Shown here one piece after another: positions 8,684 to 39,484 of a stretch of DNA of 64,000 nucleotides (the stretch's first letter is position 1; every line of letters starts with the position of its first letter). A program made the position numbers and the translations under genes. The notes beneath the pieces are model-generated. The model did no database searches, was not told the DNA's origin, and was given only the letters and a program-made list of their open reading frames with translations. Source of the stretch: Desulfobacteraceae bacterium Eth-SRB1 (lineage in GTDB: Bacteria; Desulfobacterota; Desulfobacteria; Desulfobacterales; ETH-SRB1); the NCBI GenBank assembly GCA_004193555.1, contig RPGP01000029.1:140976-204975 (forward strand). Direction: 5' to 3'.

Positions 8684-8820
8684 AGGTTGTTAGGCTGTAG
8701 GCTGAAGGCTGTAGGATATCTCTCAAACATCAAAAGTCGAATTTGGGAATAGTGTGCTTGAATGGCTATGCTATATTATTGGGTTTTGTGAGTTTTTTCC
8801 CTAAAAGCCTTCAGCCTGTC
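8684..8820. repeat. Nested palindromic word-repeat element (arms built of aggctgt/aggctga words)
   Basis: Left arm aggttgttaggctgtaggctgaaggctgtagg, right arm cctaaaagccttcagcctgtc. Same family as 62964-63155. Confidence 0.75.
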
Positions 8821-11800: not shown

Positions 11801-14800
11801 TATCCATATCGAGTTCCAGCATTTCTACAGGATACCCTGTAAGCCGGCTGACTACCTCTAACATATTATTTTGGATTGAAGATTGCTGAACTCCGACCTC
11901 AGACTCATTTTGTTGCCGGTTGCCGGTTGCTGGTTGCTCGTTACTGGTTGCTGGATTCTGGATGTTGGTTGATTGTTGATTGTTTATTTCGGATTGCTGA
12001 CCTCTGACCTCTGACATCTGACTTCCGGTTTCCAGCTTTAAGCTTTCCGCTTTGAGCTTTGAGCTTTGAGCTTCTTCCCAGCTTCCAGTTTCCAGTTTCC
12101 AGTTTCCAGTCTTCAGCTTAAGCCCCAGTGAAACTTCTGCCAGGCGCTGTGTGTTTTCCATCATGTTTTGCAGCGCGCGATTAGCCTCTGTCTGCGTTTC
12201 CAGAAACTTTTTGTGCGCTTCGGCGGTTTGTGCCTGGAGAGCCTGTATCGACTTTAAGCCTTCCCGGGTAATCTTTAATGCATCTGCAATTAAGTTTGTG
12301 TTTTTCGTTTTGTCCCTGTTCGTATTGTTTGGGTTCGTATTGTTTGGGTTTGTATTGTCTGGGACAGTTTTGTTTTTATATGCGCTCATAGCTTTATCCG
12401 GTTTGTTGATGTGTTGAGTGTGGGCAAACTCCTCATTGGGTGGGGTTTTTGTTTGTATGCTGTTTATAACTTTTTTACTCTTTTTTTTGTTTTTTAGTAT
12501 TTGTTCCGGCTCCGTTCTGTAGTTTGCTCCAGTGATAGGTATGCTCATCAGCTGCTTCCTGGTTTCGAAAACAGGATGTTCCCATCCGGCTAATTCAACA
12601 TGGTGACCTATTGATGCGAGATGGCAAAGTGTTTTAGCGAGATCCGCCACTCCGAATTGTTTTCCTGAAGAACAGTCCATTGGAATCACATGAAAATTTT
12701 GATCTTTTAATATCGATTTTACAAGACCGGTCAGAACTCTTTTGGGCCCTATCTCTATAAATGTGCGAACACCTGTTTTGAATTGATTTTTAATTTCACT
12801 TACAAAATCCACAGGACATAAAATCTGTTTGCCAAGCAAATCTTTTGCCTTGGCCGGATCATAAGGGTATGGTTTGCCTGTTGTGTTGGAAAAAACCGGG
12901 ATGTCTGAAGGGGTTATTCCGGCTTTTTTAACGATCTTTGCAAACGGTTTTTGAGCATCTTTTACAAGATTGCTGTGAAAAGCGGCGGATACCGGCAGTT
13001 TTATTGTTTTATATCCTTTTTCTATGCATATTTTGTCTGCCCGGTCAACAGCCTCGATTGTGCCGGATAGAACTCCCTGGTCAGGGCTGTTTTTGTTTGC
13101 AAGGATAACGCCTGTATCCGTATTCTCAACAAGCTTGGCAAGTTCGTCAACCGGCGCTTTTACAGCTAACATAGCGCCATTCTGGTTTTTGTTCCGGCTC
13201 GCATCAGCCATTAAATTGCCCCGTGCGATTGAGAGGTCGAAAAGGGTATCGATGTCGATCCAGCCTGCTGCATAAAGGGCGGGCAGTTCGCCATAGCTGT
13301 GTCCGCAGACAGCATCATGTTTTACCCCAAACTTTTGAAGGGTTTTCAGCATTGACAGGCTTACAGCGCCGATGGCAGGTTGAGCAATATCGGTCCTTCT
13401 TAAAGTTTCTTCCTGAACCAGCTTTTCTTTATCGGATTGAGAGGGAAGAGGGTAGATGTATTCGCATAAGGAATATGAATTATCGTATTTTGCATTTGCA
13501 ATTTCCAGGATATCGAAAGCTTCGGGAAACCAGCAAGCAATGTCCCGGCCCATGCCGGTATATTGACTTCCCTGGCCTGGAAACATGAATCCGATTTTAC
13601 CGGCTTTTTCGGAGCCAGCATAATCGGGGCCCCCGTAAAAGATATTTTTCAGATTCCAGGCCGGTTTGCCGCTGTTTTTTTCAAGGCCATCCAATGCAGC
13701 GGTAAACAAATCGGATATTTCTTTCAAGTTGTCTGAAGACCGTTCAATAACAAGAAGGAGCCTGTGCTTATCTTTTCTTGAAAATTGTGATCTTGAGCTA
13801 AAAGCTTTTTTCGAGAATTTTTTTCCCGGCAGCCCATGTTCAATAGAGCTTTTGAGGGAGCTGAGAGCTGCGGCAAGTTCCTTTTTTGTTGAAGCAGACA
13901 GCGCAAAAATTTCAACCGAGCCGTCCCATGATATTTCAGTTTTGTTTTGCTTATATTCTTCGAGAATCACATGAAAATTGCTTCCTCCGAACCCGAAAGA
14001 GCTTACACCGGCGCGTCGCGGATGTTCTTTTTTTGAGAACCATGGTTTGGACGCTGTGCTGAGATAAAAAGGTGTTTCATTGATCTTGAGATTTGGATCA
14101 GGCTTATCGGCTTTCAAGGTGGGTGGAAGCACTTTGTTATAAAGAGATAAAGCGGTTTTTATAATGCCGGCAGCTCCGGCAGCAGCCTTGGTATGCCCGA
14201 TCATGGATTTAACCGAGCCTAATGCGCACCATTTGCCGGATTTTTTATTAGATTCGCCAAAAACCCGGCTTAAAGCCTGAAACTCAACCATGTCGCCGAC
14301 CCTGGTGCCGGTGCCGTGAGCCTCGATAAGTTCGATAGTGGACGGGTCAATACCTGCATTACTGTGTGCCATTCGGAGCGCTTTTGCCTGTCCTTCAGGT
14401 TTTGGGGCATATATGCTTTGCGCTTTGCCGTCGCTTGAAGAACCTATGCTTTTTACAACAGCATAGATTCTGTCATTATTTTTTTCCGCATCATCAAGCC
14501 TTTTTAAAACAAGTATTCCGACACCTTCCCCAAGAACTGTGCCGTCCGCATCCTTTGAAAAAGGCCTTGCATCCCCGGTTGGTGAAAGAACATGACTTTT
14601 TGAAAAGCACATATGCATGAAGATGTCGTTCAAGGTGTCAATGCCGCCCGTGAGAACTGTGTCGCTGCGACCGGATACAAGTTCCAGGACGGCGAGATGG
14701 ATTGCGCCCATTGAACTGGCGCATGCGGCATCAATAACACAGTTGGTGCCCCCCAGGTCAAGGCGGTTGCATATTCTTCCGGCTACGACGTTTCCCAGGA

Positions 14801-15356
14801 GTCCGGGAAATGAGCTTTCCTGCCAGGAAACGTATGAGTCTGATATATCTTTTATGATTTCTTCTGTTTTTTCAGGAGAGATACCTGAGTTTAAAAGAGC
14901 TTTCCGCCATTTTGGATGCCCTAACCTGGCACCCAGAGGAATAACAAGCTCCTGTGTTCCTGTTATTCCTAAAATTACGCTTGTTCTGTCTTTGTTATAT
15001 TTTTTTCCTTCTCCATAGCCTGAGTCATGAAGCGCCATTTTTGCGGCAGTCAGGCCGAAGAGCTGGGATGTGTCGGTTGCTTCAATGGAGGCTGGAGGAA
15101 TGCCGAATTCTGTTGGATCAAATGAGACAGGTGATAGAAATCCGCCCCGTTTACAGTAAACATGGTCCGGTTTTTTGGGGTCCTTATCAAAGTAATCCTC
15201 TGACAGCCAGTGTGTTTTCGGGACATCGGTAATTCCGTTTTCGCCGTGAAATATCAAACGCCAGTATTCTTTTAATTCAGACGATTTTGGAAAGAGGCAT
15301 CCGATTCCAATGATGGCAATGGGAGTATTCTGGTAAGTATTTTTATTTGATTTCAA
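8820..15356 (-). CDS. Type I polyketide / PfaA-like synthase, KS-AT-ACP-ACP-KR-DH (2178 aa)
   Basis: KS: DAACASS, HGTGT, GHT. AT: GHSYGE. Two ACPs: LGIDSIKRVEIL twice. KR Rossmann fold: VITGGARGVT. C-terminal hot-dog DH: HILDGKPVVP. Confidence 0.9.
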   Translation of the reverse strand: MKSNKNTYQNTPIAIIGIGCLFPKSSELKEYWRLIFHGENGITDVPKTHWLSEDYFDKDPKKPDHVYCKRGGFLSPVSFDPTEFGIPPASIEATDTSQLFGLTAAKMALHDSGYGEGKKYNKDRTSVILGITGTQELVIPLGARLGHPKWRKALLNSGISPEKTEEIIKDISDSYVSWQESSFPGLLGNVVAGRICNRLDLGGTNCVIDAACASSMGAIHLAVLELVSGRSDTVLTGGIDTLNDIFMHMCFSKSHVLSPTGDARPFSKDADGTVLGEGVGILVLKRLDDAEKNNDRIYAVVKSIGSSSDGKAQSIYAPKPEGQAKALRMAHSNAGIDPSTIELIEAHGTGTRVGDMVEFQALSRVFGESNKKSGKWCALGSVKSMIGHTKAAAGAAGIIKTALSLYNKVLPPTLKADKPDPNLKINETPFYLSTASKPWFSKKEHPRRAGVSSFGFGGSNFHVILEEYKQNKTEISWDGSVEIFALSASTKKELAAALSSLKSSIEHGLPGKKFSKKAFSSRSQFSRKDKHRLLLVIERSSDNLKEISDLFTAALDGLEKNSGKPAWNLKNIFYGGPDYAGSEKAGKIGFMFPGQGSQYTGMGRDIACWFPEAFDILEIANAKYDNSYSLCEYIYPLPSQSDKEKLVQEETLRRTDIAQPAIGAVSLSMLKTLQKFGVKHDAVCGHSYGELPALYAAGWIDIDTLFDLSIARGNLMADASRNKNQNGAMLAVKAPVDELAKLVENTDTGVILANKNSPDQGVLSGTIEAVDRADKICIEKGYKTIKLPVSAAFHSNLVKDAQKPFAKIVKKAGITPSDIPVFSNTTGKPYPYDPAKAKDLLGKQILCPVDFVSEIKNQFKTGVRTFIEIGPKRVLTGLVKSILKDQNFHVIPMDCSSGKQFGVADLAKTLCHLASIGHHVELAGWEHPVFETRKQLMSIPITGANYRTEPEQILKNKKKSKKVINSIQTKTPPNEEFAHTQHINKPDKAMSAYKNKTVPDNTNPNNTNPNNTNRDKTKNTNLIADALKITREGLKSIQALQAQTAEAHKKFLETQTEANRALQNMMENTQRLAEVSLGLKLKTGNWKLETGSWEEAQSSKLKAESLKLETGSQMSEVRGQQSEINNQQSTNIQNPATSNEQPATGNRQQNESEVGVQQSSIQNNMLEVVSRLTGYPVEMLELDMDIESDLGIDSIKRVEILSTLEEKMPDLPSVSPEIMGSLKTLGQIAEYLTGSEKKEPQSRPKEKKIQESAPREHASQTGQKIQNEMLEVVSRLTGYPVEMLELDMDIESDLGIDSIKRVEILSALEEKMPDLPSVSPEIMGNFKTLGQIAEYLTGSDNGDAHKKQNEKVLSKNKTDEKTAVKIDKRVVSLSEKPLHYDNKLSIPNGRKVLITDDRAGLSKAIARELASFNIDASVISNDILKNKKDLPPAGGLIILPDSKMIGADYSQNNRANLPDDAFLKKAFELTSRVAVELLDSAEKGGAVFTTITSLDGAFGFKGKNIFNPLQGGLAGLAKTASIEWEKVNCHAIDISPDWKNNKEIAKAVVYELLNPDLSAPVETGLNPDSRLMLELEPSPYHHGKIDLNQNDVVVITGGARGVTAASALALAKHSKPTLVLLGRSPNPSPEPEWLATINDEPAIKKAILKNEFSGNHASPVQLEKSYKNHMANREITGNIVKLEETGSTVLYYSVDIRDSDMVKSILDNVRSNHGPIKGVIHGAGTLKDRLIVEKTLKQFEMVFDTKVKGLKTLLEATKQDKLKYIVLFSSITARFGNRGQADYAMANEVLNKIARYESIVRPDCKVISINWGPWDGGMVSSALKREFARSKIELIPLDSGAMCMLYEMMGDKSSPVEVVMGANIMPAKKLISGGKQVSLSDTKKNLSLTAKCEIDINSYPVLESHILDGKPVVPFALITEWLGHGALHENPGLFFHGLDDMRILSGIKLNNNKKMIRLMAGKSRKKGSIFEVDVEIRNGIKDGVEMIHSRAKAILTDRPAQPPVFSGLDDIDSKPFPMSIEEIYEKILFHGAELRGIKEIIYYSSNKMAARISSAPQPAKWISNPLRSKWLTDPLVLDCAFQMAIIWSFEKTGAVSLPSYTASYRQYRNDFPSDGVTAVLEVKKTTRHKMKCDFTFLDQDNVVVALLTGYEAIIDDSLINAFKSGQTTQPNYSAKLLS
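11345..11890 (-). repeat. Tandem duplication (period about 342 nt) encoding the two ACP domains
   Basis: Near-identical blocks NEMLEVVSRLTGYPVEMLELDMDIESDLGIDSIKRVEILS(T/A)LEEKMPDLPSVSPEIMG occur twice. Confidence 0.85.
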
Positions 15357-20266: not shown

Positions 20267-20980
20267 ATGGATAAAATCATATCAGAAACCAAGGATAAAT
20301 ACATCAAAGCTTTGATGGATATCAGCAGGGCAATAACTTCCGACCTTTACCTTGAAGATATTCTTAGACTGATCGTGATGGTTACCGCCAGGGTTACCGG
20401 GGTTGAAATTTGTTCTTTATGGCTTATTGATGAAACAGTCAGTCCCCCAATGATTCGGCTTAAAGCCACACAGGCAATTGATTCCGATTATGTGCGTGAC
20501 AGATCTTTAAACCTGGATGAAGGTGTGGTCGGCTATGTGGCTACACATAAATCCCCTCTTATTATTAAAGATGTTTTGAAGGAGTCAAAGTTTAAGGAAA
20601 AAGAGATGGCCAGGAAGCTTGGACTTGTATCTATGCTAAGTGTTCCGCTTCAGGTAAAGGATGAAAAGGTGATCGGTGTGTTTAACTGTTTTACGGCACA
20701 CCCTCATAAATTTTCAGAAACAGATGTGAATATGATAACCACGGTTGCAAACCAGGCAGCTCTGGCAATCCTTAATACTGAATTAATAGTTAAAACCAAG
20801 GTTATTCAGGAAGAGCTGGAAACGCGCAAGATGGTTGAGCGGGCCAAGGAAGTACTTATGCATCGCCGCAATAAGACCGGAGAAGAGGCATATTCCTGGA
20901 TTAGAAAACGGAGTATGGATACACGCAAATCCATGCGTTGCGTAGCCGATGCAATTCTGCTTTCAGAAGAGCTCGAATAG
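20267..20980 (+). CDS. GAF + ANTAR RNA-binding antitermination regulator
   Basis: GAF region (SLWLIDE...VVGYVATHKSPLIIKDV) plus a C-terminal ANTAR helix pattern (LETRKMVERAKEVLM...EEAYSWIRKRSMDTRKSMRCVADAIL). Confidence 0.85.
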   Translation: MDKIISETKDKYIKALMDISRAITSDLYLEDILRLIVMVTARVTGVEICSLWLIDETVSPPMIRLKATQAIDSDYVRDRSLNLDEGVVGYVATHKSPLIIKDVLKESKFKEKEMARKLGLVSMLSVPLQVKDEKVIGVFNCFTAHPHKFSETDVNMITTVANQAALAILNTELIVKTKVIQEELETRKMVERAKEVLMHRRNKTGEEAYSWIRKRSMDTRKSMRCVADAILLSEELE

Positions 20981-21056
20981 ATTTGCAAAAAAAAATATCT
21001 TGACATATTTGCTGTGTTTGGCTTAAAAAAATCAGTTTAATAATTTTACGAAAACT

Positions 21057-21109
21057 CTGTACAATGGAGTGCAGAATTTTTTTGAATATGGAAGACAAAG
21101 GCGTCTTTT
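21057..21109 (+). promoter_or_regulatory. Dual hexaloop ANTAR-target RNA (two hairpins, loops AAUGGA and AAAGGC)
   Basis: ctgtac-aatgga-gtgcag (21057-21074) and ggaagac-aaaggc-gtctttt (21090-21109). Both loops have A1 and G4. Confidence 0.7.
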
Positions 21110-21140
21110 CCCTGTAAGAGGATAGACGTCTTTTTTATTT
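21100..21140 (+). terminator. Intrinsic terminator overlapping ANTAR hairpin 2
   Basis: ggcgtcttttc (21100-21110) pairs with ggatagacgtc (21120-21130) with 1 mismatch and 2 GU pairs, followed by ttttttattt. Confidence 0.7.
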
Positions 21141-21174
21141 CTATAACAACTTAGGTAAGGAGGGTAAACAAGTT

Positions 21175-22740
21175 ATGTCATTTAGTAAACCAAATCGTAG
21201 CGCAGCTACAGTTAGTTTAACACGGGTTGATCCGGCTCCTGGGTCCGGCATTTGTGTAACCTGTCTTGATGGTTGTGAGGGGCCGTGTGAAATAGGGCGC
21301 TCTGCCTTGAAGGGACGCGAGATGCTTTATCCGCAACCCTTTGGCAAGGTCACATCAGGTTCGGAAAAGGATTATCCGATCGATTTTTCCCATTTTAATA
21401 TTCAGGGTACCTGTGTTGGAGCGGTTGGAATTGAAGCCGATTCTGATGTCGCCATATTTTCTGCAGTTGACTGTTCAACAGCCGTTGGAAAGGATAGCAG
21501 CATAAAACTTGATTTTCCTGTATTTACAGGCGCTGTTGGATCAACCGAAATTGCCAGGGTCAATTGGGAAGAGATGGCTGTCGGCGCAGCTATATCCGGC
21601 ATTATAGTGGTAGCAGGAGAAAATATATGCGGCATGGATTCGCAGGCCGAGTTTAAAAATGGTAAAATCAGCAAGTCTCCTGAGATGGAGCGCAGGATAG
21701 ACGCCTTTAAAAGATGGTATGACGGCAAGGGCGGCATCATCATTCAAGCTAATGTTGAAGATACAAAGCTTGGTGTGCCGGAATATGTAATAGAAAAGCT
21801 CGGCATAGAGATATTCGAGCTCAAATGGGGCCAGGGCGCCAAAGATATTGGCGGTGAGGTTAAACTGCCAAGCCTTGAGAGAGCATTAGAGCTAAAAAAA
21901 CGAGGGTATATTGTTTTGCCCGATCCGACCAATCCAGCTGCCCAGGAGGCCTTTAAGACAGGTGGAATCACTGAATTTGAAAGACACTCACGACTTGGAA
22001 TGGTTGATGAGGAGTCTTTTCATAAATCTGTTGAATATCTTCGCGGTGTTGGAGCAAAATATGTTACCCTTAAAACTGGTGCTTATCGTCCGGCCGATCT
22101 TGCAAGAGCCATTAAATATGCTTCAGACGCTAAAATAGACATGCTGACTATTGATGGCGCCGGCGGCGGAACAGGTATGAGTCCCTGGAGAATGATGAAT
22201 GAATGGGGCATCCCTACTGTTGAGCTCGAATGTATGGCTTACCAGATGTGTGAACGTCTGAAATCAAAGGGCGCCTATATTCCGCCTATTGCTATTGCCG
22301 GCGGTCTTTCATTAGAAGATCATATATTTAAGGCCATTGCCCTTGGAGCGCCTTATGTCAAGGCTATCTGTCTGGGAAGAGCCATGATGACAGCGGCTAT
22401 GGTGGGAAAAACTCATGGCAAATTAATGGCAGAGAAAATGGACTTGGAAGGGGAAGACATTGAAGCAGGATATCTCAAGCTGTTTGCAGTGGGCGCACAA
22501 TTAAAAGAACGTTTTGGCGCGGATTTCAGCAAACTTCCGGCCGGCGCCATTGGAATGTACTCTTATGTGGATCGCTTGCGCCAGGGCCTGCAGCAGTTTA
22601 TGGCCGGCGCAAGAAAATTTGCTCTTCAGCATGTAGATAGAAACGATCTGGTTGCTTTGACAAGAGATGCGGCTGACATATCAGGCATCCCGTATGTTAT
22701 GGAATCTGATCAAGAGGAAATTGACAAGATACTGGGATAA
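21175..22740 (+). CDS. Glutamate synthase FMN-domain (GltB domain 2) family protein, archaeal split type
   Basis: N-terminal Cys cluster CVTCLDGCEGPCEIG; WGQGAKDIGGEVKL; DGAGGGTGMSPW FMN-site motifs. Confidence 0.8.
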   Translation: MSFSKPNRSAATVSLTRVDPAPGSGICVTCLDGCEGPCEIGRSALKGREMLYPQPFGKVTSGSEKDYPIDFSHFNIQGTCVGAVGIEADSDVAIFSAVDCSTAVGKDSSIKLDFPVFTGAVGSTEIARVNWEEMAVGAAISGIIVVAGENICGMDSQAEFKNGKISKSPEMERRIDAFKRWYDGKGGIIIQANVEDTKLGVPEYVIEKLGIEIFELKWGQGAKDIGGEVKLPSLERALELKKRGYIVLPDPTNPAAQEAFKTGGITEFERHSRLGMVDEESFHKSVEYLRGVGAKYVTLKTGAYRPADLARAIKYASDAKIDMLTIDGAGGGTGMSPWRMMNEWGIPTVELECMAYQMCERLKSKGAYIPPIAIAGGLSLEDHIFKAIALGAPYVKAICLGRAMMTAAMVGKTHGKLMAEKMDLEGEDIEAGYLKLFAVGAQLKERFGADFSKLPAGAIGMYSYVDRLRQGLQQFMAGARKFALQHVDRNDLVALTRDAADISGIPYVMESDQEEIDKILG

Positions 22741-22773: not shown

Positions 22774-22980
22774 ATGCTTAATGTAATTTGTAAACATAAC
22801 TGCAAGGATTGTTATGCGCTTAGAGTTTGTGCAGTACAGGCCATAAAAGATCAGCAGGGTTCAATCTATGTGGAAACTGATGATTGTATCGGCTGTGGTT
22901 GCTGCAAAACAGCCTGTGTCACCTTTGGTTACAAGGCCCTTGAAGACAAGACACCTGAATGGTTAAAAGGGGCTGCTTAA
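22774..22980 (+). CDS. Small 4Fe-4S ferredoxin-like protein
   Basis: CKDCYALRVC and CIGCGCCKTAC motifs. Confidence 0.65.
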   Translation: MLNVICKHNCKDCYALRVCAVQAIKDQQGSIYVETDDCIGCGCCKTACVTFGYKALEDKTPEWLKGAA

Positions 22981-23078
22981 CCGATTTATTGATTTCGGAA
23001 TGCGGAGTGCGGAATGCAGAGAAAAAATCCGAAATCCGCATTCCGAAATCCAGAATTATAAGACAGGGAGAATAAGAG

Positions 23079-24920
23079 ATGCACGGTTGGATTGGTCGGT
23101 GTCTGAGGGTTAACCTGACTAAAAATGATTTTAAGCTCGAAGAAATTTCTCAGGAACTCATGAATAAATTTTTAGGGGGGCGTGGGCTCGGGGTTAAAAT
23201 TCTTTTCGATGAAATTGATCCCATGGTTGATCCATTATATCCTGACAATAAGCTTATATTTGTTTCAGGCCCGCTTGTAGGCACAGGTGCTGTAACCGGA
23301 GCATCATGCAATGTGATAACAAAGAGCGCTCTTTCAGGGACAATTGCGTGCGCAAAATTGCGAGGGCATTTCGGCGCGGAATTAAAATACTCCGGTCTGG
23401 ATATGATTATCGTGGAGGGCAGGGCTGAATTTCCCGTTATTCTTTCCATTCTTGACGATAAAATTGTCATCCAGCCTGCGCTTGAGTATTGGGGCCGTAC
23501 TACATCTGAAACGGAAAACATGTTTAAAAGCAGCCTGAGCGACAGATGGGCGGCTCGTGACACATATCTCTTATCCATCGGCCCTGCAGGAGAGAAACTT
23601 GTGCCGATGGCTAATGTTATCAACGACGGTTTTTTGTCGGTTGGGGGCGCTGGTATCGGCGCAGTAATGGGCTCTAAAAATCTTAAGGCAATTGCGGTCA
23701 AGGGTAATCACTCGGTGACAGTAGCCGACGGAAACCGTTTTGTGCAGGTTGTAACAACCTTGATCAACAAACTAAACAGCGCACCCCTGACCTCTCAATC
23801 CATGTCTTCCTGGGGTTCCGCTTTTCTTGTAGGTCTTTGTAATCAAAAAGCGATATTGCCGTTTAAGAACTTTCAGAGTTCTTCATTTGAGGAATCAAAA
23901 CAGATTGGAACAGAAGCTCTGTCCAGCGCCTTTGCACTTAGAAGCAGGGGCTGTTTTGCGTGCCCGATTGCATGCATAAAGAAAGCGGATGTGGATAACC
24001 GGTTTTATAAAGGCAAAGGAATGGCTCCAACCTACCTTGCTATTGGCGCTCTGGGACTTAATTGCGGCATTACAGATCTTACCAACATCGGGATAGCCAA
24101 CATGATTTGCGGTGAAATGGGCCTGGATCCTGTTGCAGCAGGTGGAACTATTGCCACTGCCATGGAGCTTGAGAGAAAAGGGCTTTTAACAAAGGATTCT
24201 TTAAAGCTTGATTTGCGGTTTGGTAATGGAGAAGATCTGATCCAGGCGTTAACCCTTATGGCGACAAAAAAAGGGCATGTTAAAAGAATAGGGCGGGGAG
24301 CAAAGGCATTGGCAGAGGAATATGGGCATCCGGAACTTTTTATGGGCGTCAAAAATATACCACTTGCCCCGTTTGACCCACGTGCAATCCAGGGAATGGG
24401 ACTTCACTTCGCAACATCCAATTATGGCCCACACCACCTCTATGCATACACTTTTATTGATGAAGTCCTGAATGTACATGAAAAATCGGATCCATGGACT
24501 ACGGAAGGAAAACCTGAACTGGTAAAGCGGTTCCAGGATATTACTGCTGTGATGGATTCATTAGGGTTGTGCAACTGGTCGTTGATGGGGCTTAAATTCA
24601 ATAATTTTGTACCCTTGATTAATAGCTGCTTAGGCACAAGCTACAAGGCTGAAGATTTACTCCAGACAGGTGAGAGGGTCTGGAATCTGGAGAGGCTGTT
24701 CAATATGCGAGCCGGGTTTAATCGAAGTCATGATAGCCTGCCTGAGAGATTTTATAATGAGCCGATTGAAGATGGGCCTGCCAAGGGGCAAATCAGCAAG
24801 GCCAATGAAATGCTGGATGACTACTATGGACTTCGTGGTTGGGATAATAAAGGCCAGCCGTCCGCAGAGATCTTAAGAGCATTAGAACTGGAGAGTAGAG
24901 ATGCCAAGAATAAAGATTGA
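23079..24920 (+). CDS. aor: Tungsten-type aldehyde:ferredoxin oxidoreductase (AOR family)
   Basis: N-terminal GRCLRVNLT...GGRGLG, the CFACPIAC 4Fe-4S motif, and GLCNW near the C-terminus. Confidence 0.85.
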   Translation: MHGWIGRCLRVNLTKNDFKLEEISQELMNKFLGGRGLGVKILFDEIDPMVDPLYPDNKLIFVSGPLVGTGAVTGASCNVITKSALSGTIACAKLRGHFGAELKYSGLDMIIVEGRAEFPVILSILDDKIVIQPALEYWGRTTSETENMFKSSLSDRWAARDTYLLSIGPAGEKLVPMANVINDGFLSVGGAGIGAVMGSKNLKAIAVKGNHSVTVADGNRFVQVVTTLINKLNSAPLTSQSMSSWGSAFLVGLCNQKAILPFKNFQSSSFEESKQIGTEALSSAFALRSRGCFACPIACIKKADVDNRFYKGKGMAPTYLAIGALGLNCGITDLTNIGIANMICGEMGLDPVAAGGTIATAMELERKGLLTKDSLKLDLRFGNGEDLIQALTLMATKKGHVKRIGRGAKALAEEYGHPELFMGVKNIPLAPFDPRAIQGMGLHFATSNYGPHHLYAYTFIDEVLNVHEKSDPWTTEGKPELVKRFQDITAVMDSLGLCNWSLMGLKFNNFVPLINSCLGTSYKAEDLLQTGERVWNLERLFNMRAGFNRSHDSLPERFYNEPIEDGPAKGQISKANEMLDDYYGLRGWDNKGQPSAEILRALELESRDAKNKD

Positions 24921-25275
24921 TCACAATAAGTGCACCGGTTGCAGGCATTGCGAAACCGCCTGTTCTCTCAATCATGTGGCCGGAGTCGCCAATCCGAGAA
25001 GATCTCGAATAAGAGTTTTTAGAGAAGGCACAACCTATTTTCCGACTATTGCCGGTCCTTTTGTGGATGCTGCCTGCACCTCAAAAAATGATCTGATTAT
25101 CGGTGATCATACTTACGATATGTGTCTGATCTGCAGGGCATCCTGTCCTGAGAAGCCATTTTTTATTGAAGCTGAAACAGGTTTCCCTCTAAAATGCGAT
25201 TTTTGCGGCATTCCTCCAAGTCCTTCCTGCGTAAGGTGGTGCAATAGCGGGGCATTGGAGCTGGTGGAAGATTAA
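24901..25275 (+). CDS. 4Fe-4S dicluster electron-transfer protein (AOR-associated)
   Basis: CTGCRHCETAC, CLICRASCP and CDFCG motifs. It overlaps the AOR 3' end by 20 nt. Confidence 0.7.
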   Translation: MPRIKIDHNKCTGCRHCETACSLNHVAGVANPRRSRIRVFREGTTYFPTIAGPFVDAACTSKNDLIIGDHTYDMCLICRASCPEKPFFIEAETGFPLKCDFCGIPPSPSCVRWCNSGALELVED

Positions 25276-25622: not shown

Positions 25623-28600
25623 ATGAAAAATAATAATAGACATAACAATCTTGTTGGAGCTGTAATGGTGGTTGGCGGAGGAATTGCCGGCATCCAGGCA
25701 TCTCTCGATCTTGCCGATTTGGGATATTTTGTTTACCTGGTAGAAAAAAGCGCTTCTATTGGCGGAGTTATGGCCAGGCTGGACAAAACTTTTCCGACCA
25801 ATGATTGCGCCATCTGAATTCTTGCGCCCAAGCTGGTCGAGGCCGGTCGGTCTCCAAATATTAAGATTATCACCAATGCGCAGCTCATGTCAGTGGATGG
25901 CAATGCCGGAAATTTTATCGCCGGCGTCCGTTGCATTCCAAGATATGTGGACGAAAAACTTTGCACAGCCTGTGGAACCTGCACCAGTTACTGTCCTGTA
26001 ACCATCAAGGATCAATTTAACGACGGACTCTCTTTAACAAAAGCCATACATATAGATTATCAGCAGGCCATACCCGCGGCAAACGTTGTGAATGCAGACT
26101 TTTGTCTATTTTTGACAAGGCGTGAATGCAAACAGTGTGAGAGGGTCTGCCTTGCTAATGCTATCGATTTTAAACAGCAGCCGCAGGTTATTGATATAAA
26201 TGTCGGCGCTATTATTCTGTCTCCCGGCTTTGGCAGGATAGATAAAAAAGTCTTATGTAAATATGGTTACGGGATATCTCCCGATGTAATGACCGGTATG
26301 GAATTTGAGCGCATAACATCGGCTTCCGGGCCGTTCATGGGCAAAATTGTCAGGCCCTCAGATGGCCGGCATCCTGAACGGATTGCCTTTTTTCAGTGTA
26401 TCGGCAGTAGAGATCTGCCAAGTGGCAATGGATATTGTTCATCAGTTTGCTGTATGTATGCCATCAAGGAGGCGCTTGTTGCCAAAGACCATGCCCCGGA
26501 TATTGATATAGCCATTTTTTACATGGATATGCGAACCCAGGGCAAGGAATTCGATTATACAAGGATCCGGGCCAGGGAGAAGGGCATCCGTTTTATAAGG
26601 AGTCGCGTCGGCGGTGTTCACGCCAAAGACAAAATTTTCGAAGTTTTTTATGTAAATGAGCAGGGGGAGCATATAAGAGAAGATTTTGATATGATAGTTC
26701 TTCCCGAAGGTCTTGAATCACCAAAGGATGCTAAACTGCTGGCAGGAGCAGCCTGTATTGATTTAAATAAGTATGATTTTTGCATGACCAGCTCATATGC
26801 TCCTCTGGAAGCAAATCGCTCGGGAATATTTGTGGCAGGGGCGTTTCAGGGGCCAAAAGATGTGCCTGAGAGCGTGACAGATGCAAGCGGCGCAGCGGCC
26901 CTTGTCTCGGAACTGCTTTGCAAAGCCAGGGATACCCAGGTTAAAGCACGAATTTATCCCGAAGAGAAAGAGATCGAAAAGGAGCTTCGCATTGGAGTGT
27001 TTATTTGCTCCTGTGGAAGTAATATCGGTGGTGTGGTTGATGTGCCGGCTGTTGCCGGGTATGCAGCCGGTCTTGAAAATGTCGTCGCAGTTGATACAAA
27101 TCTTTATAGCTGTGCTCAAAACACTCAGGAGGCAATTACTGAAAAGATCAAGGTAAATGGATTAAATCGTGTAGTTGTTGCGGCCTGTAGCCCGAGAACA
27201 CACGAGCCCTTATTCCAGGAGACACTTAAAAACGCCGGATTAAACCGGAGCCTGTTTGAAATGGCCAATATCAGGGATCATTGCTCATGGGTTCATGTAA
27301 ATACTCCTGAGGAGGCTACTGAGAAATCAAAGGACCTTGTAAGAATGGCTGTTGCCAAGGCGAGCCTGCTTCAACCTATGAGAGAACAGGAAATTCCCGT
27401 GATACCAAAAGCTCTCGTTATTGGAAGCGGCATTTCCGGGATGACGGCTGCTTTAAGTATCGCCAGGCAGGGTTTTGAGTGTTATCTTGTTGAAAAATCA
27501 CACAAACTCGGAGGCAATATAAAACGTCTTCGGTATCTGATAACCGGCGATGACCCCGGTAGAATTTTTACTGAGCTGGAAAGTGATGTCAGATCAAACC
27601 CTTTAATACATGTATATGAGAATGCTGTTATAGATAACATAACAGGTTATATCGGAAATTTTGCTACTACTTTGCAGATGCCGGAACATTCAGAAATGTT
27701 GGAGCATGGCGTAGTTGTTATAGCAACAGGCGGAATGCCTTATGAGCCCAAACAATACCTTTATGGAAAATCAAAACAGGTTGTCACACAGCTTGAACTG
27801 GAAGAAATGATAGCCGGCGGTAAAGGATTAGAAAATGTTCATGATATCGTAATGATACAGTGTGTCGGTTCCAGAGGTGAAGATCTGTCTTATTGCAGCA
27901 AGGTGTGTTGTTCACAGGCCATAAAAAATGCTTTAAAGATTCTGGAATATAATCCAGCGGCAAATATTACAATCCTTTACAGAGATATCCGCACTTATGG
28001 ATTTGATGAAGACTACTATCAATTAGCCAGGGAAAAGGGGGTAACTTTCATCCGTTTTGAAAAAGATTATCCTCCTGAAGTGACTGAAAAGGATGGTTTT
28101 ATCAATGTAGATGTTTTTGACAGGATATTGGGGGCAAAATTATCTATAAAACCGGATCTAATTATCCTTAGTGTAGGGATAACTCCAGCTCCTGCGCAGG
28201 ATCTGGCTAAAATGCTCAAGATTCCTTTAACCCGGGACGGGTTTTTTCTGGAGGCACACCCAAAACTCAGGCCGGTTGAATTTTCAGTGGAGGGAATCTA
28301 CCTTTGCGGCGCAGCCCATTCACCAAAACCTGTATCAGAGTCTATTGCCCAGGCAAAGGCAGCGGCAGGTAAAGCTTGCGTTCCGTTGACCAGGGGGTTT
28401 GTTGCTGTAGAACCTATTGTATCATCTGTTGATATGGATGCCTGTATCGGATGCAGGATTTGTGAAAGCCTGTGCCCGTATGCAGCTATCAGGATGATAA
28501 AGGCAGGCAAAAGGAAAAAGGCCGAAACTATTTCCGCTTCGTGTAAGGGATGTGGGATATGTGCTTCACACTGCCCGGCAATGGCTATATCAATGGCTGG

Positions 28601-28649
28601 ATTCACTAACGAACAGATTTTGTCACAAATACATGCTTTTGGAGAATGA
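25623..28649 (+). CDS. hdrA: HdrA-like heterodisulfide reductase flavoprotein with two FAD domains; selenocysteine at in-frame UGA 25815-25817
   Basis: ORFs 25623-25817 and 25887-28649 are in the same frame. Reading through gives [18 protein letters not shown], matching the conserved HdrA CSMC-ILxPK site with Cys replaced by Sec. GGGIAGIQ and GSGISGM dinucleotide folds; several CxxCxxCxxxCP motifs. Confidence 0.8.
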
Positions 28650-28652: not shown

Positions 28653-29300
28653 TTGAGCAGTATGATGAAAAATAAATCATTTGAACCAAAAATACTCGGC
28701 TTTCTTTGCAACTGGTGTTGTTATGCAGCCGCCGATTCCGCCGGCATTGCACGATTTCAATATCCGCCCAATATCCGCGTCGTAAGAGTGATGTGTACCG
28801 GAAGAATAGATCCTCTGTTTATTGTCGAAGCCTTTTCTGCCGGCGCAGACGGCGTATTTGTAGGCGGGTGACAGCTCGGTGAATGTCATTACCAGGTTGG
28901 TAATTATGACGCAATGGTAACTGCCTGTTTTATTCAGGAAATATTAAACTGCTTGCAGATAAATTCAGATAGATTGCTTCTGGATTGGGCATCTGCGGCT
29001 GAAGCGCCGCTGTATGTTGAGTTAATAACCGCATTTACAAACCGGATAAAAGAATTAGGGCCTTTAGGGCATGTTGAAGGAATAGAACTTAATGATTTGC
29101 AATCAAAACTTTCAGCGGCCGGCAGGGCTGTTAAAAGTATTAAAATGCGGACACGATTCGCAAAGTTAACCCGGTATTTTCGTGAGTCAAAAGACTACTC
29201 TAAAAGTGTTATTCAGGCCAGAATTGTCGAAAAGCTAAGGGGTCCAATCTGCCAGGAAATTGAAAAGCAGGAAGTAGCAGTTCGGAGGATGGATAATTGA
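28653..29300 (+). CDS. mvhD: MvhD-like (methyl-viologen hydrogenase delta / Hdr-associated) protein; selenocysteine at in-frame UGA 28869-28871
   Basis: ORFs 28653-28871 and 28914-29300 share a frame. Reading through gives [22 protein letters not shown], matching the MvhD GC-HxGDCHY motif. The start may be the ATG at 28662. Confidence 0.8.
28885..28910 (+). promoter_or_regulatory. Candidate bacterial SECIS hairpin 14 nt downstream of the mvhD UGA
   Basis: gtcattacc-AGGUU-ggtaattatgac: a 6-bp upper stem plus a bulged lower stem, with GGU in the apical loop. Confidence 0.45.
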
Positions 29301-31075
29301 CAATTACTTCTCATAAAGTGGACCCGCGATTCAAATTTGAAGTAGCCTCCATGGCAGGTGGTGAACTGGTCAAAGGTTGTTTTGACTGCGGAACATGCAC
29401 TGGTGTATGCCCTGTCAGTGAAGTTGAACCAGGCTTTGATCCAAGAAAAATCCTTCATATGATTCGGCTCGGGCTTAAAGAGCAGGTCCTGAGTTCTACT
29501 GCTATATGGTTTTGCACACACTGTGACACATGCGCATTGGTATGTCCGCAGAATGTGCGGTTCAGCAGCATTGTGGATGTTCTTCGCGAATTAGCTGTCA
29601 AGGAAGGTTATGCGGAACTCAAAACAAAGGAACCATTTGCCACAAGCCCGTGCAAGGCAGCCTGTCCCGCCCATATAAGCATACCTGGTTTTATTGCGGC
29701 AGTTTTACAGGGGAAATACAGAGAAGGCCTGAGGCTGATAAAAGAAGAGATGCCCTTTCCGGCAATTTGCGGTCGTGTCTGTCCCCACCCATGCGAAGCG
29801 GCATGCAACAGGAACAGTTCAGATAAACCTGTAGCAATTGAGTATTTAAAACGTTTTCTGGCTGATGAGGATATTTTGTCGGATGAATCATATATCCCTC
29901 AAAAAAAGCAAAGTAGAACAGAAAAAATCGGTGTTGTCGGATCCGGGCCGGCTGGCTTAACTGTCGCTTATTATCTGTCTATTGAAGGTTATCCTGTTAC
30001 GGTTTTTGAAAAACTCCCTGTAGCAGGCGGCATGATGGCTGTTGGCATACCGGAATTCCGCCTTCCACGAAATATTCTCAACGCTGAAATAGATATTATC
30101 AAGAAATTAGGCGTTGATATCAAACTCAATTTTTCAATCGGAAAGGATTGCAGCCTTGCCGAGCTGCAAAAGAATTATAGAGCCGTTTTTATTGGTGCAG
30201 GATGTTGCAAATCAATGAAACTCGGTATTGCCGGTGAAGATGTCAGAGAAGATGAGGATACAGGTATTATTGACGGTCTTATGTTCTTACAGGATATACA
30301 TCTCGGAAACCTTCCTGCTTCCAGAGGCAGGCTAATTGTTATCGGCGGCGGCAATACGGCGGTTGATTGCGCGCGTGTAGCTATACGGCTGGGTTATAGA
30401 AATGTTGCTGTTTTGTATAGAAGAACCAGGGAGGAGATGCCGGCAAACTCATGGGAGGTTGATGAAACAATTGAGGAGGGAATAGACATTCAGTTTTTGA
30501 CGGCGCCGGTGCGAATTATATCGGATGACGGGAAGGTGTCAGGCGTGGAATGTGTTCGAATGGAATTGGGTGAGCCGGATGAATCAGGAAGACGAAGACC
30601 TGTGCCTGTCCAGGGATCTGAATTTATCGTTAAAACAAACGTTATAGTATCGGCTATCGGACAGACGCCTGATTTGAAATGCATGACTGACAAATGCGAA
30701 ATTAATATTTCAAACAGGGGGCTTGTTGCGGCTGATCTTCAAACAGGCCTTACAAATATTCCCGGAATATTTGCCGGAGGTGATGTGGTCTCAGGCCCCA
30801 GAACGGTCGTGGAAGCGGTTGCGTTTGGGAAAAGAGCGGCGTTAAGTATTGATAAATATTTAAGAGGTAAAGATATTAGCTCGGGACGCAAAATGAATTG
30901 GACTGGAATTAAACTGATATCTAATGAGATAATATATAAGGAAAGGGAGCAAATGCCCCGGCTTCCTCTTGCCGAGTGTACAAAAAGTTTTAAAGAAATA
31001 GAGTCAGGTTTTAACAGGGAACAGGCCAAAAGAGAAGCCGAACGCTGTTTAAAAATATGTGGTCTTCAAAAATGA
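29297..31075 (+). CDS. HdrC-like 4Fe-4S domain fused to a GltD/NfnB-like NAD(P)H:FAD oxidoreductase
   Basis: CFDCGTCTGVCP...CTHCDTCALVCP (HdrC-like); CKAACPAH...CGRVCPHPCEAACNR and VGSGPAGL, GGGNTAVDCAR (GltD-like). The TTG start overlaps the mvhD stop; an alternative ATG is at 29351. Confidence 0.8.
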   Translation: MTITSHKVDPRFKFEVASMAGGELVKGCFDCGTCTGVCPVSEVEPGFDPRKILHMIRLGLKEQVLSSTAIWFCTHCDTCALVCPQNVRFSSIVDVLRELAVKEGYAELKTKEPFATSPCKAACPAHISIPGFIAAVLQGKYREGLRLIKEEMPFPAICGRVCPHPCEAACNRNSSDKPVAIEYLKRFLADEDILSDESYIPQKKQSRTEKIGVVGSGPAGLTVAYYLSIEGYPVTVFEKLPVAGGMMAVGIPEFRLPRNILNAEIDIIKKLGVDIKLNFSIGKDCSLAELQKNYRAVFIGAGCCKSMKLGIAGEDVREDEDTGIIDGLMFLQDIHLGNLPASRGRLIVIGGGNTAVDCARVAIRLGYRNVAVLYRRTREEMPANSWEVDETIEEGIDIQFLTAPVRIISDDGKVSGVECVRMELGEPDESGRRRPVPVQGSEFIVKTNVIVSAIGQTPDLKCMTDKCEINISNRGLVAADLQTGLTNIPGIFAGGDVVSGPRTVVEAVAFGKRAALSIDKYLRGKDISSGRKMNWTGIKLISNEIIYKEREQMPRLPLAECTKSFKEIESGFNREQAKREAERCLKICGLQK

Positions 31076-34642: not shown

Positions 34643-34708
34643 AATTTGAATCTCCTGATTATATAAATTGTTAAATATTTGAGTCCACTCGACCACTCAA
34701 CCACTTAA

Positions 34709-35071
<363 letters not shown>

Positions 35072-35082
35072 TCAAATTTTGA

Positions 35083-35220
35083 TAAATTCGTAAAAAGTCG
35101 AAAAGTTCTCTTTTCCATCATTCCGGCGAAAGTCCGCCAAAGCGCTCTGGCGGATAAATTCAATGCGTTCTGGATGCCGGATCAAGTCCGGCATGACGAT
35201 TTCGAGACTTTTTACGAGTT
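35083..35220. repeat. Palindromic element with tcgtaaaaagtc-type arms and inner hairpins
   Basis: aaattcgtaaaaagtcgaaa ... tttcgagactttttacgagttt. Inner hairpins tccgccaaagcgctctggcgga and gccggatcaagtccggc. Confidence 0.7.
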
Positions 35221-35330
35221 TATCATTTAAAAATAACCATGAAAAATTCATTTATCATATATTAAATTGTAAAGTTTTTTCAACATATGATATTAAAAAT
35301 TCGAAAAAGAATTTTTTTAAATAGCTTTTC

Positions 35331-35346
35331 AGCAATAGATATGCCA
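35331..35346 (-). promoter_or_regulatory. Canonical sigma54 promoter TGGCAT-atcta-TTGCT upstream of glnB copy 1
   Basis: The reverse complement of agcaatagatatgcca gives GG/GC spacing that fits TGGCAC-N5-TTGCW. Identical 18-mer to 42161-42178. Confidence 0.65.
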
Positions 35347-37545: not shown

Positions 37546-37908
<363 letters not shown>

Positions 37909-39287: not shown

Positions 39288-39301
39288 TTTTTTCCTACTT
39301 C

Positions 39302-39465: not shown

Positions 39466-39484
39466 TTTAAATATCAATTTAGGT

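Follow-up and report, generated by a model that had tools for sequence, protein, structure and literature searches.

The 195-nt spacer between a GAF-ANTAR regulator gene and a gene with a Glu_synthase domain very likely encodes an ANTAR-class transcription attenuator, worked by the adjacent GAF-ANTAR protein, whose GAF domain probably reads carbon/nitrogen status. Judged from its letters, the leader is a canonical ANTAR dual-hexaloop attenuator set in a regulon for nitrogen assimilation, a situation predicted in other phyla by Ramesh et al. (2012). Its elements and the neighbouring genes are given below by their positions in the window, which is the whole 64-kb stretch of DNA analysed.

20267–20980, + strand: GAF-ANTAR one-component regulator, 237 aa (GAF ∼29–168, long linking helix, ANTAR 181–231)
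21000–21029, + strand: candidate sigma-70 promoter of the leader (−35 TTGACA at 21000–21005; weak −10 TTAAAA/TAAAAA at 21023–21029)
21056–21075, + strand: P1 hairpin, 7-bp stem, hexaloop L1 AAUGGA at 21063–21068
21076–21089, + strand: U-rich linker between P1 and P2
21090–21109, + strand: P2 hairpin, the predicted antiterminator (stem ggaagac/gtctttt, hexaloop L2 AAAGGC at 21097–21102)
21097–21140, + strand: intrinsic terminator (5' arm 21097–21110, 3' arm 21120–21133, U-tract 21131–21140)
21158–21177, + strand: ribosome-binding site AGGAGG (21158–21163) and ATG start (21175), read from the sequence
21175–22740, + strand: first gene predicted to be regulated, coding for a Cys-rich protein of 521 aa that contains part of a glutamate-synthase FMN domain
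22774–22980, + strand: 4Fe-4S ferredoxin, 68 aa (Pfam/NCBIfam)
23079–24920, + strand: aldehyde:ferredoxin oxidoreductase, AOR (Pfam/NCBIfam)
24901–25275, + strand: 4Fe-4S protein (Pfam/NCBIfam)

Structure and conservation of the leader RNA

The initial annotation had described two hairpins with A1/G4 hexaloops, and both are indeed found where it placed them. The core of P1 (ctgtac/AAUGGA/gtgcag, 21057–21074) gains one further pair to span 21056–21075 and is prolonged by A:U pairs to 21050–21081; its loop is closed by an A-U and a C-G pair, and the hairpin folds with −8.9 kcal/mol (z −4.1). P2 follows after a stem-to-stem linker of 14 nt, with an L1-to-L2 spacing of 34 nt, and AC/GU closes both loops. 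An A1/G4 dual hexaloop with both stems of at least 6 bp occurs a single time in the window, the chance rate estimated from dinucleotide shuffles being 0.16 per window, and the pair of hexaloops is not a product of chance. A search of the window for the bare ANNGNN motif is uninformative (7850 matches vs 7835 expected).

The segment 21097–21110, which comprises the L2 loop and the 3' arm of P2, is also the 5' arm of the terminator, and the two folds are therefore mutually exclusive. The longer stem that had been proposed to overlap P2 (21100–21110 with 21120–21130) is present, and RNAfold extends the pairing to 21097–21106 with 21124–21133, followed by UUUUUUAUUU. Folded alone, P2 is weak (−5.5 kcal/mol vs −15.5 kcal/mol for the terminator part), and when the two structures are compared by folding 21030–21145, the check suggested at the outset, P1 plus terminator emerges as the minimum-free-energy state (−32.1 kcal/mol, z=−4.0), the terminator being thermodynamically favoured. 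Upstream, the promoter annotated as ttgaca-17-ttaaaa stands in part: TTGACA, the 17-nt spacer and TTAAAA (21023–21028) are all there, but the −10 hexamer is weak, TTAAAA matching the consensus at 3/6 positions and TAAAAA, with an 18-nt spacer, at 4/6. A consensus promoter scan did not call this candidate; the −35 box CTTGACAT does not vary among 8 related loci, although its flanks do.

Conservation was analysed in 34 leaders chosen by gene order, namely the GTDB loci (Desulfobacterales) among the best 80 of 522 GAF-ANTAR species loci that carry the GAF-ANTAR gene followed, on the same strand, by a Glu_synthase-like gene. A covariance-model match lies directly upstream of the Glu_synthase-like gene in 34/34 such loci, the homologues behind the leader having 43–95% identity. 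Loss of the A1/G4 hexaloops or of the terminator overlap from orthologous leaders had been named as grounds for abandoning the proposal, and both traits are kept: 31 of the 34 leaders carry A1/G4 in both loops, the remaining 3 having G1 in one loop, and the P2 core GACAAAGGCGUC is retained. Over the same leaders 96% of the cells of P1 are paired, with both-sided changes in 5 of its 7 pairs, and 94% of those of the terminator, where compensatory changes extend to L2 positions 3 and 5; in slid-alignment controls pairing goes down to 37–76%. The AC/GU closing of the loops is shared across the family, with the reservation that the pattern used to pick the 33 seed sequences demanded these letters. 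The L1-to-L2 spacing is constrained in the family, with a median of 35 nt (range 28–51, mostly 30–38), although the linker sequence is variable. Finally, the leader family is shown to default thermodynamically to the terminated state, P2 averaging −4.0 kcal/mol vs −20.9 kcal/mol for the terminator part, with L1 unpaired in 28 and L2 paired in 31 of the 34 minimum-free-energy folds.

Regulator, target genes and genomic linkage

The position of the leader directly after a GAF-ANTAR gene and ahead of a nitrogen-assimilation gene, as originally noted, is supported by the gene context. Pfam recognizes GAF and ANTAR as the only domains of the regulator: GAF_2 (PF13185, 75.5 bits) and PF01590 (71.2 bits) match residues 29–168, both above gathering scores, and ANTAR (PF03861) reaches 63.5 bits vs a gathering score of 27.3, covering profile positions 4–54 of 54. 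In the AlphaFold model (pLDDT 81.8) a continuous helix (151–200) links the GAF domain to the ANTAR three-helix bundle, whose region is modelled with helices 151–200, 205–219 and 223–236, and the PDB sequence matches of the ANTAR part are Rv1626, a 'Response regulator' chain (6wsh) and NasR. By tblastn this gene is the sole ANTAR-coding stretch within the window, and across the best 80 of 522 species loci the regulator retains 74–93% identity. The view that a GAF sensor is unusual on an ANTAR protein has to be dropped, since GAF-ANTAR figures in published lists of common ANTAR architectures (PMC3369931, PMC7496416, PMC12591593) and is in fact the commonest of them in mycobacteria (bioRxiv 10.1101/660928). 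Our literature search found no characterised GAF-ANTAR protein, nor any known signal for one.

In respect to what is sensed, the best NCBIfam matches of the GAF domain are NifA (TIGR01817, 53.8 bits, cut-off 528.85) and PtsP (47.6 bits, cut-off 583), a likeness at the domain level only and far under the family cut-offs. The best PDB matches (3ci6, 3trc, 4g3k, 8jrc) are GAF structures of PtsP, Nlh1 and NifA, and a fold search with the regulator model returns GAF domains exclusively, with PtsP and NifA ranked high; phytochrome, DosS and PDE GAF domains score almost equal, so that the search does not distinguish GAF subtypes or their ligand. PtsP (EI-Ntr) is nitrogen-related and NifA is a nitrogen-status regulator; their GAF domains are the nearest to the sensor, whereas the output is an RNA-binding ANTAR domain here and an AAA+ or PTS enzyme module there. 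F119 of A. vinelandii NifA is an example of a residue implicated in binding 2-oxoglutarate or glutamine. Since the NifA and PtsP domains are the best matches, the guess of 2-oxoglutarate made in the initial annotation is reasonable, and by analogy sensing of 2-oxoglutarate or glutamine by the GAF domain is plausible. The statement that the domain implies direct small-molecule gating was overstated, such gating being a deduction.

The 521-aa product of the first downstream gene matches Pfam Glu_synthase with 56.9 bits through residues 276–407 only (profile positions 185–310 of 369), and NCBIfam gives no match for it. On its domain content it is not a canonical GltB, which combines GATase_2, Glu_syn_central, Glu_synthase (FMN) and GXGXG. 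An exact look-up of this protein in the assembly collection returned no record, and its PDB sequence matches, TIM-barrel designs alone, were judged spurious. The genes at 22774–25275 are separated by short gaps or have overlapping reading frames, and are probably co-transcribed with the Glu_synthase-like gene; the order of glt, ferredoxin and AOR genes is kept in the close relatives L001, L004, L005 and L048.

Beyond this arrangement, the leader precedes genes for GDH (L031, L105), split GOGAT (L054), full-length GltB (L069), glnA (L091, L153) and a nitrate-type NMT1_2 binding protein (L143). In L084 the module lies between glnD, the divergent neighbour of the regulator, and glnA, together with two P-II genes and amtB. 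The window also holds two glnA genes, amtB and glnD; no further leader was found in it by pattern, dual-hexaloop scan or covariance model, and none lies upstream of these four genes. A pattern scan of metagenomes with 20 specified bases yielded 80 loci, of which ∼36 are real leaders and the rest coding-sequence repeats; as chance matches are expected at that collection size, loci were retained only if confirmed by the covariance model. For 27 of the confirmed loci, all selected by motif, 1 kb or more of upstream DNA is available, and a GAF-ANTAR homologue (30–78% identity) adjoins the motif in 14 of them, stands ∼5 kb off in one (L107), and is absent from the available stretch in 12; the leader, in turn, is absent within 4 kb in 40 of 80 GAF-ANTAR loci (the best 80 of 522). 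The pairing of the GAF-ANTAR protein with the leader RNA is strong and yet not exclusive, as around half of the GAF-ANTAR loci are without leader and around half of the motif loci without GAF-ANTAR.

Comparison with known ANTAR systems

The dual-hexaloop class of ANTAR targets is defined in earlier work (PMC3369931, PMC8934654). With EutV/eutP of Enterococcus faecalis (Ramesh et al. 2012, PMC3369931; Walshe et al. 2022, PMC8934654) the present leader shares two A1/G4 hexaloops with AC...GU closing, a P2 that overlaps the 5' arm of the terminator and a P1 compatible with the terminator, and the regulators have in common a coiled-coil or helix joined to an ANTAR three-helix bundle. The two systems differ in the sensor, which is a phosphorylated receiver there and a GAF domain here, in the targets, which serve ethanolamine use there and glutamate-forming assimilation here, and in geometry, the P1 stems being longer here and L1 standing ∼35 nt from L2 vs 24 nt. 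The eut linker measures 5–12 nt, longer or shorter ones abolish function, and a lengthened eutP linker results in no antitermination (PMC3369931, PMC8934654).

At gathering thresholds Rfam has no match in the whole window, and in permissive mode it returns a sub-threshold P11 match and noise. Against this family (RF00625, P11/NalA) the leader scores 30 bits vs a gathering score of 70 (E ∼4e-5 in a 221-nt search), the alignment being confident for the P2/terminator half only, in which it covers GACAAAGGCGUC and the terminator. P11/NalA is an experimentally proven target of the ANTAR protein NasT (PMC11387622, PMC10783516). As in NasT-NalA (nirBD, Pseudomonas; PMC11387622, PMC10783516) and NasR-nasF (Klebsiella; PMC7496416), the leader is tied to a nitrogen-assimilation operon and is predicted to terminate when unbound, and its P2/terminator core is nearly identical to that of NalA (GGACAAAGGCGUCC... 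in the P11 consensus), although by score it falls outside the Rfam family. Nitrate releases NasT from NasS and is sensed by NasR via a NIT domain, whereas a GAF domain is found here; the targets also differ, being glutamate-synthase-like, GDH and GS genes in the present case.

A similar genetic setting is that of the Firmicutes ANTAR predictions (Desulfotomaculum, Desulforudis, Carboxydothermus; Ramesh 2012, Fig. 9, Table S2), in which the RNA likewise lies between an ANTAR gene and glutamate synthase-like or glutamine synthetase genes; these cases are bioinformatic, as is ours, but they belong to a different phylum and their regulators carry a response-regulator annotation. The supplementary tables of Ramesh 2012, searched for the terms Desulfobacter, Desulfococcus and Desulfatibacillum, gave nothing. 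GnfK/GnfR of Geobacter sulfurreducens (PMC2995071) is an ANTAR antitermination system of Deltaproteobacterial lineage also linked to nitrogen status; unlike the present one-component regulator, it is a two-component pair (kinase and receiver-ANTAR) and controls nif/glnB-type genes, and the gdhA gene of Geobacter is regulated by GnfM at the initiation step and not through ANTAR (PMC2995071).

The RNA mechanism itself is thus nothing new, being an ANTAR dual-hexaloop attenuator in its usual setting of nitrogen metabolism. The value of the case is in the pairing, as GAF-ANTAR is among the most numerous ANTAR architectures and is here represented by a compact example with an unambiguous cis target beside the gene, a coherent regulon (glutamate-synthase-like, GDH, GOGAT and GS genes) and hundreds of near-identical orthologues. 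These three traits bring the question of GAF-to-ANTAR signalling within direct experimental reach, a single protein and a single 60-nt RNA being sufficient.

Proposed mechanism and alternative explanations

In the mechanism that we propose, the transcript would start at the promoter with the conserved −35 box, possibly joined by read-through from the regulator gene, and P1 would fold first. By default, L2 and the 3' arm of P2 would pair with 21120–21133 to form a U-tailed hairpin of ∼13 bp, with termination before the ATG. An active GAF-ANTAR protein, presumably as a dimer, would bind the A1/G4 hexaloops of P1 and then of P2, holding the weak P2 closed and withholding the 5' arm of the terminator, so that transcription would read through into the Glu_synthase-like, ferredoxin and AOR genes. 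The signal read by the GAF domain would most likely be carbon/nitrogen status, for which 2-oxoglutarate and/or glutamine are the foremost candidate ligands, and the module would tune glutamate-forming ammonium assimilation. Points against this mechanism are the L1-to-L2 spacing, longer than that of eutP, the absence of any Rfam family above threshold, the unpaired loci described above, and the glnA and amtB genes of the window, which carry no such leader. This points to a post-initiation control layer for ammonium assimilation in Desulfobacterales, which are abundant marine sulfate reducers, and flags the uncharacterised Glu_synthase-domain Fe-S protein as a predicted nitrogen-regulated one.

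How the protein is gated is a separate matter. That it is a self-contained sensor, in which 2-oxoglutarate (and/or glutamine) bound in the GAF pocket turns the ANTAR dimer on and licenses read-through into the GOGAT-like, GDH and GS genes, is a tentative proposal by analogy; if true, it would supply the large GAF-ANTAR subclass with its first ligand and a first defined regulon, and would describe a nitrogen circuit of sulfate reducers that acts post-initiation without kinase or partner protein. A somewhat less likely possibility is that GAF-ANTAR is indeed the regulator but is gated by a protein partner, likely PII (GlnB/GlnK) set by GlnD, instead of a ligand in its GAF pocket. Precedents exist in the NifA GAF domains, which are controlled via GlnB in Azospirillum and via PII in Rhodobacter (PMC9866876), and in the ANTAR proteins AmiR and NasT, gated by their partners AmiC and NasS (PMC3369931, PMC11387622); glnD next to the regulator and the two nearby P-II genes in L084, the glnD gene of the window, and the unusual conservation of the regulator in the best 80 of 522 loci, which would suit several interaction surfaces, also agree with it. 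However, the A. vinelandii NifA GAF domain binds 2-oxoglutarate directly (Kd ∼60 µM; PMC9866876), the present regulator has no domain beyond GAF and ANTAR, and no partner gene is consistently adjacent across loci.

The assignment of the adjacent protein to the leader bears on a further explanation, in which the attenuator is a true ANTAR target but is worked by another ANTAR protein encoded elsewhere (e.g. a receiver-ANTAR protein of NasT/GnfR/EutV type), GAF-ANTAR serving other targets. We regard this as unlikely: the leader adjoins a GAF-ANTAR gene in every one of the 34 GTDB loci with this synteny and in 14 further, independent loci that were picked by the RNA alone, down to 30–44% protein identity, and the window holds no second ANTAR-coding region, even though the hexaloop core is so close to NalA/P11 that ANTAR domains may not discriminate between such targets, the unpaired loci on both sides (12 of 27 and 40 of 80, besides the one with the gene ∼5 kb off) fit it, and our view of the genome spans 64 kb only. 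It is very improbable, in turn, that there is no switch at all and that the hairpins are tandem intrinsic terminators of the GAF-ANTAR transcript with a coincidental ANTAR likeness. P1 is directly followed by AUUUUUUUG and was flagged as terminator-like, and the terminator belongs to the minimum-free-energy structure; but terminators need no invariant loops, whereas in this family the letters and closing pairs of the loops persist as the stems covary, P1 has a conserved −35 box upstream of it, and the element also precedes GDH, GOGAT and glnA genes with no upstream GAF-ANTAR. The U-run behind P1 is moreover not conserved in distant loci, and a role of P1 and this U-run in terminating the regulator gene was for that reason rejected as the main function. 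A protein-independent metabolite riboswitch (e.g. for glutamine) would also be a conserved structured leader before nitrogen-assimilation genes, yet it is the most improbable reading of all, as no riboswitch family is matched, permissive thresholds included, sequence conservation is found in two exposed hexaloops and not in a pocket-forming junction, and the architecture fits the protein-dependent ANTAR and NalA type.

The leader RNA and its competing folds

The regulator gene is separated from the next gene by a spacer of 194 nt in which, as read from the sequence, two hairpins (P1 and P2) and a terminator segment are found. Indeed, the two hexaloops (L1 and L2) with A at position 1 and G at position 4 (A1/G4), on which the initial annotation had based an ANTAR antiterminator, are present within the following arrangement:

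20267–20980, +, regulator gene, 237-aa GAF-ANTAR protein (Pfam GAF_2, 75.5 bits, residues 29–168; ANTAR, 63.5 bits, residues 181–231)
21056–21075, +, hairpin P1, tctgtac-AAUGGA-gtgcaga
21090–21109, +, hairpin P2, ggaagac-AAAGGC-gtctttt
21120–21133, +, terminator 3' segment, complementary to the L2 loop and the 3' arm of P2, then UUUUUUAUUU
from 21175, first downstream gene, Cys-rich protein of 521 aa that carries part of a glutamate-synthase FMN domain (PF01645, 56.9 bits, residues 276–407)

Folding of 21030–21145 with RNAfold results in a minimum free energy (MFE) structure composed of P1 and the terminator, with −32.1 kcal/mol versus a shuffle mean of −19.0 (z = −4.0). As the terminator part (−15.5 kcal/mol) also outweighs P2 (−5.5 kcal/mol) when the two are folded separately, the naked leader RNA should terminate. 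P1 can form in either state, the competition with the terminator being established by P2 only. In a scan for pairs of ANNGNN-hexaloop hairpins on both strands of the 64-kb window, no pair other than P1/P2 has 6 bp or more in each stem, dinucleotide shuffles yielding 0.16 such pairs per window; the comparative evidence for the leader is far stronger than this chance count. We have also observed that P1 with its flanks (21056–21083) has a terminator-like hairpin score in its own right, which results from AUUUUUUUG 3' and GAAAAC 5' of the stem; the U-run 3' of P1 is kept in AT-rich close relatives only, in which it lengthens the P1 stem via A:U pairs.

Regarding transcript initiation, the TTGACA at 21000, 19 nt past the regulator stop codon, lies within an 8-nt block, CTTGACAT, whose invariance in eight loci with variable flanks supports a −35 element. 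The candidate −10 of the ttgaca-17-ttaaaa promoter initially proposed is poor and was missed by a consensus promoter scan. There is no terminator between the regulator gene and the candidate promoter; read-through from the regulator gene into the leader is possible, and the transcript of the regulator itself probably also stops at the attenuator.

Conservation, covariation and relation to known ANTAR targets

Relatives of the regulator are found in 522 species of the genome collection, and the best 80 loci, from Desulfobacterales and relatives and 74–93% identical, were fetched. In 34 of these 80 a Glu_synthase-like gene (43–95% identical) lies 3' of the regulator on the same strand. We have searched for the leader with a simple A1/G4 hairpin scan, then with a sequence pattern, which found the element in 33 loci, and then with a covariance model (R1) built on a structure-blind MAFFT alignment of leaders (A2). 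R1 matches the window and 40 of the 80 loci, including all 34 with the Glu_synthase-like gene, each time directly upstream of that gene. The consensus comprises P1 (..gcACAAUGGCGUgc..), P2 (..aGACAAAGGCGUCu..) and the terminator 3' arm (..GRCGCCUUUUUUU). Both loops have A1/G4 in 31 of the 34 leaders, the other three having G at position 1 of one loop (counts that include six pattern-missed leaders, read individually). The L1-to-L2 distance has a median of 35 nt (range 28–51) and the linker sequence drifts; on average P2 folds with −4.0 and the terminator part with −20.9 kcal/mol, L2 being paired within the MFE fold in 31/34 leaders. One related locus (L002) carries in the P1–P2 linker a 179-nt insertion (5136–5314), which looks like a miniature transposable element: its 23-nt ends are inverted repeats (91% complementary), and TATG(G) is duplicated. 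This leader is also a natural 'long-linker' variant, in which pairing of the insertion ends could rejoin P1 and P2.

Compensatory changes in orthologous leaders are found in both P1 and the terminator. In A2, P1 is paired in 96% of cells with both-side changes in five of its seven pairs, and P1 and P2 together are paired in 87%, versus 35–57% in slid-register controls, with both-side changes in 41 cells versus 13 in shuffles (0/500 as high). The terminator is paired in 94% of cells, versus 48–76% in slid-register controls, with both-side changes in four pairs. The inner four pairs of P2 argue neither for nor against pairing, since their sequence is essentially fixed. The pattern that selected the A2 seeds fixed loop positions 1, 2 and 4 and the two closing pairs, whose invariance in this alignment is therefore built in; it placed no constraint on the lower P1 stem or the terminator arm. 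Two of the compensatory terminator pairs have as their 5' partner L2 position 3 (A to G, partner U to C) or position 5 (G to A, partner C to U). The claimed mutual exclusion of P2 and terminator is in this way borne out, these pairs being direct comparative evidence that hexaloop nucleotides double as terminator nucleotides.

ANTAR substrates have been defined as two small hairpins with hexanucleotide loops, conserved closing pairs and a constrained linker, in which A1 and G4 are both required for binding and induction and the second hairpin overlaps an intrinsic terminator (PMC3369931); an ANTAR dimer engages first one hexaloop and then the other (Walshe et al., PMC8934654). All of these structural features that could be tested are found in the window's leader, the one difference being a loop-to-loop distance of 34 nt, longer than the 24 nt of eutP. 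In the genome searches of Ramesh et al. such elements were mostly upstream of nitrogen-metabolism genes, and in Desulfotomaculum, Desulforudis and Carboxydothermus they precede glutamate synthase/glutamine synthetase genes directly downstream of ANTAR genes (PMC3369931). A general ANTAR-target family does not exist in Rfam, and no family reaches threshold in the window; with permissive settings the leader has a match to RF00625 (P11), GACAAAGGCGUC and the terminator being aligned at high posterior probability. P11 corresponds to NalA, the leader of nirBD, to which the ANTAR protein NasT binds; antitermination there requires the A1/G4 hexaloops (PMC11387622, PMC10783516). With 30 bits versus a gathering score of 70, the leader is, as judged by sequence, a relative of this proven ANTAR target outside the Rfam family. 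The initial observation is confirmed and an ANTAR antitermination mechanism is supported as far as sequence analysis can go, the leader being an ANTAR dual-hexaloop attenuator of known class in a nitrogen-assimilation regulon.

The GAF-ANTAR regulator and its possible signal

The AlphaFold model of the regulator (pLDDT 81.8) presents a GAF fold, one 50-residue helix and then the ANTAR bundle. The best NCBIfam matches for the GAF region are the NifA N-terminus and the PtsP GAF domain, both far under family cut-offs; by sequence, PtsP GAF domains (3ci6, 3trc) and Aquifex Nlh1 come first in the PDB, and Foldseek places PtsP on top and includes the NifA GAF (8jrc), other GAF types having nearly equal scores. 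The regulator is 78–96% identical in the best 120 database matches and 74–93% identical in the 80 best of 522 species-level genomes, a conservation unusually high for a one-component regulator, which hints at several constrained interaction surfaces. A GAF sensor, initially considered unusual, is in fact among the standard ANTAR combinations (PMC3369931, PMC7496416, PMC12591593) and the dominant architecture in mycobacteria (bioRxiv 10.1101/660928). As of 2012 there was no characterised ANTAR example with a PAS or GAF domain (PMC3369931), as of 2020 the characterised one-component ANTAR proteins cited were PAL and NasR only (PMC7496416), and a Streptomyces ANTAR-GAF protein is still 'of unknown function' in a January 2026 paper (PMC12838073); our literature searches for a characterised GAF-ANTAR protein found no paper. 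The known attenuator class is extended to Desulfobacterales, paired with a common but uncharacterised regulator; the significance is modest, the main value being a tractable protein-RNA pair for learning what GAF-ANTAR senses.

GOGAT-type enzymes and glutamate dehydrogenase (GDH) consume 2-oxoglutarate to form glutamate, and since the leader precedes genes of both types, we infer by analogy that 2-oxoglutarate would be an attractive activating signal. The GAF domain of A. vinelandii NifA binds 2-oxoglutarate (Kd ~60 uM), and that of NifA from other species is controlled via PII proteins (PMC9866876); PII-mediated gating is a serious alternative to a 2-oxoglutarate signal.

Downstream genes and genomic surroundings

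The 521-aa gene is followed by genes for a 68-aa 4Fe-4S ferredoxin, an aldehyde:ferredoxin oxidoreductase (AOR) and another 4Fe-4S protein. In related loci the leader is upstream of GDH (L031), a pair of split glutamate-synthase subunit genes (L054) and full-length GltB (L069), and in L084 the module has divergent glnD on one side, with glnA, two P-II genes and amtB on the other. When metagenome contigs were scanned with a sequence pattern, real leaders came up together with chance matches in coding repeats; R1 confirmed 36 loci. Most of the genes downstream of these belong to three subfamilies of the same Glu_synthase-domain protein, others being glutamine synthetase (L091, L153), GDH (L105), an NMT1_2 nitrate-type binding protein (L143), a C-N hydrolase (L149) and OmpL-like beta-barrel porins from soil samples (Pfam BBP2; L101, L134, L139), to our knowledge a class not usually listed in ANTAR regulons. 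The leaders of these three soil loci (also L121, L128, L151, L159) are a GC-richer variant, ggggaACAACGGCGUuuccc ... GGACAAUGGCGUCC plus terminator; in L151 the gene called downstream encodes a LuxR-type regulator. Although the metagenome loci were picked by RNA alone, a GAF-ANTAR homologue (30–78% identical) adjoins the motif in 14 of the 27 whose upstream DNA extends for 1 kb or more, and in a 15th (L107) it is ~5 kb away: the RNA-protein linkage thus holds both ways and is not exclusive.

The window also contains a nitrogen cluster:

33230–42112, −, whole cluster
33230–34696 and 35793–37250, −, glutamine synthetases
37989–39287, −, amtB
39485–42112, −, glnD

At these two glnA genes, amtB and glnD the ANTAR leader motif is absent by hairpin-pair scan, pattern and R1, and they would therefore be controlled some other way in this genome.

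Among other genes, an HdrA-like flavoprotein gene (25623–28649, +) has its frame broken by a single in-frame TGA (25815–25817), inside a 16-residue motif and at a position where HdrA proteins have a cysteine; this is probably a selenocysteine codon, so that the ORF list splits one gene into 64-aa and 920-aa pieces. Downstream of the AOR and HdrA-like genes, 29297–31075 (+) encodes a 592-aa protein with an HdrC-like N-terminus and a GltD-like (glutamate synthase small subunit / NAD(P)-binding) body, which may serve the Glu_synthase-domain protein as a redox partner or may belong to a separate electron-bifurcating complex. At the left end of the window (56–4778, +) there are a RhuM-family gene and a gene for a type I restriction R subunit into which a DUF559 endonuclease-like domain is inserted, and 8820–15356 (−) encodes a multidomain synthase of 2178 aa (KS-AT-ACP-KR-DH), which is of the polyketide or PUFA-synthase type.
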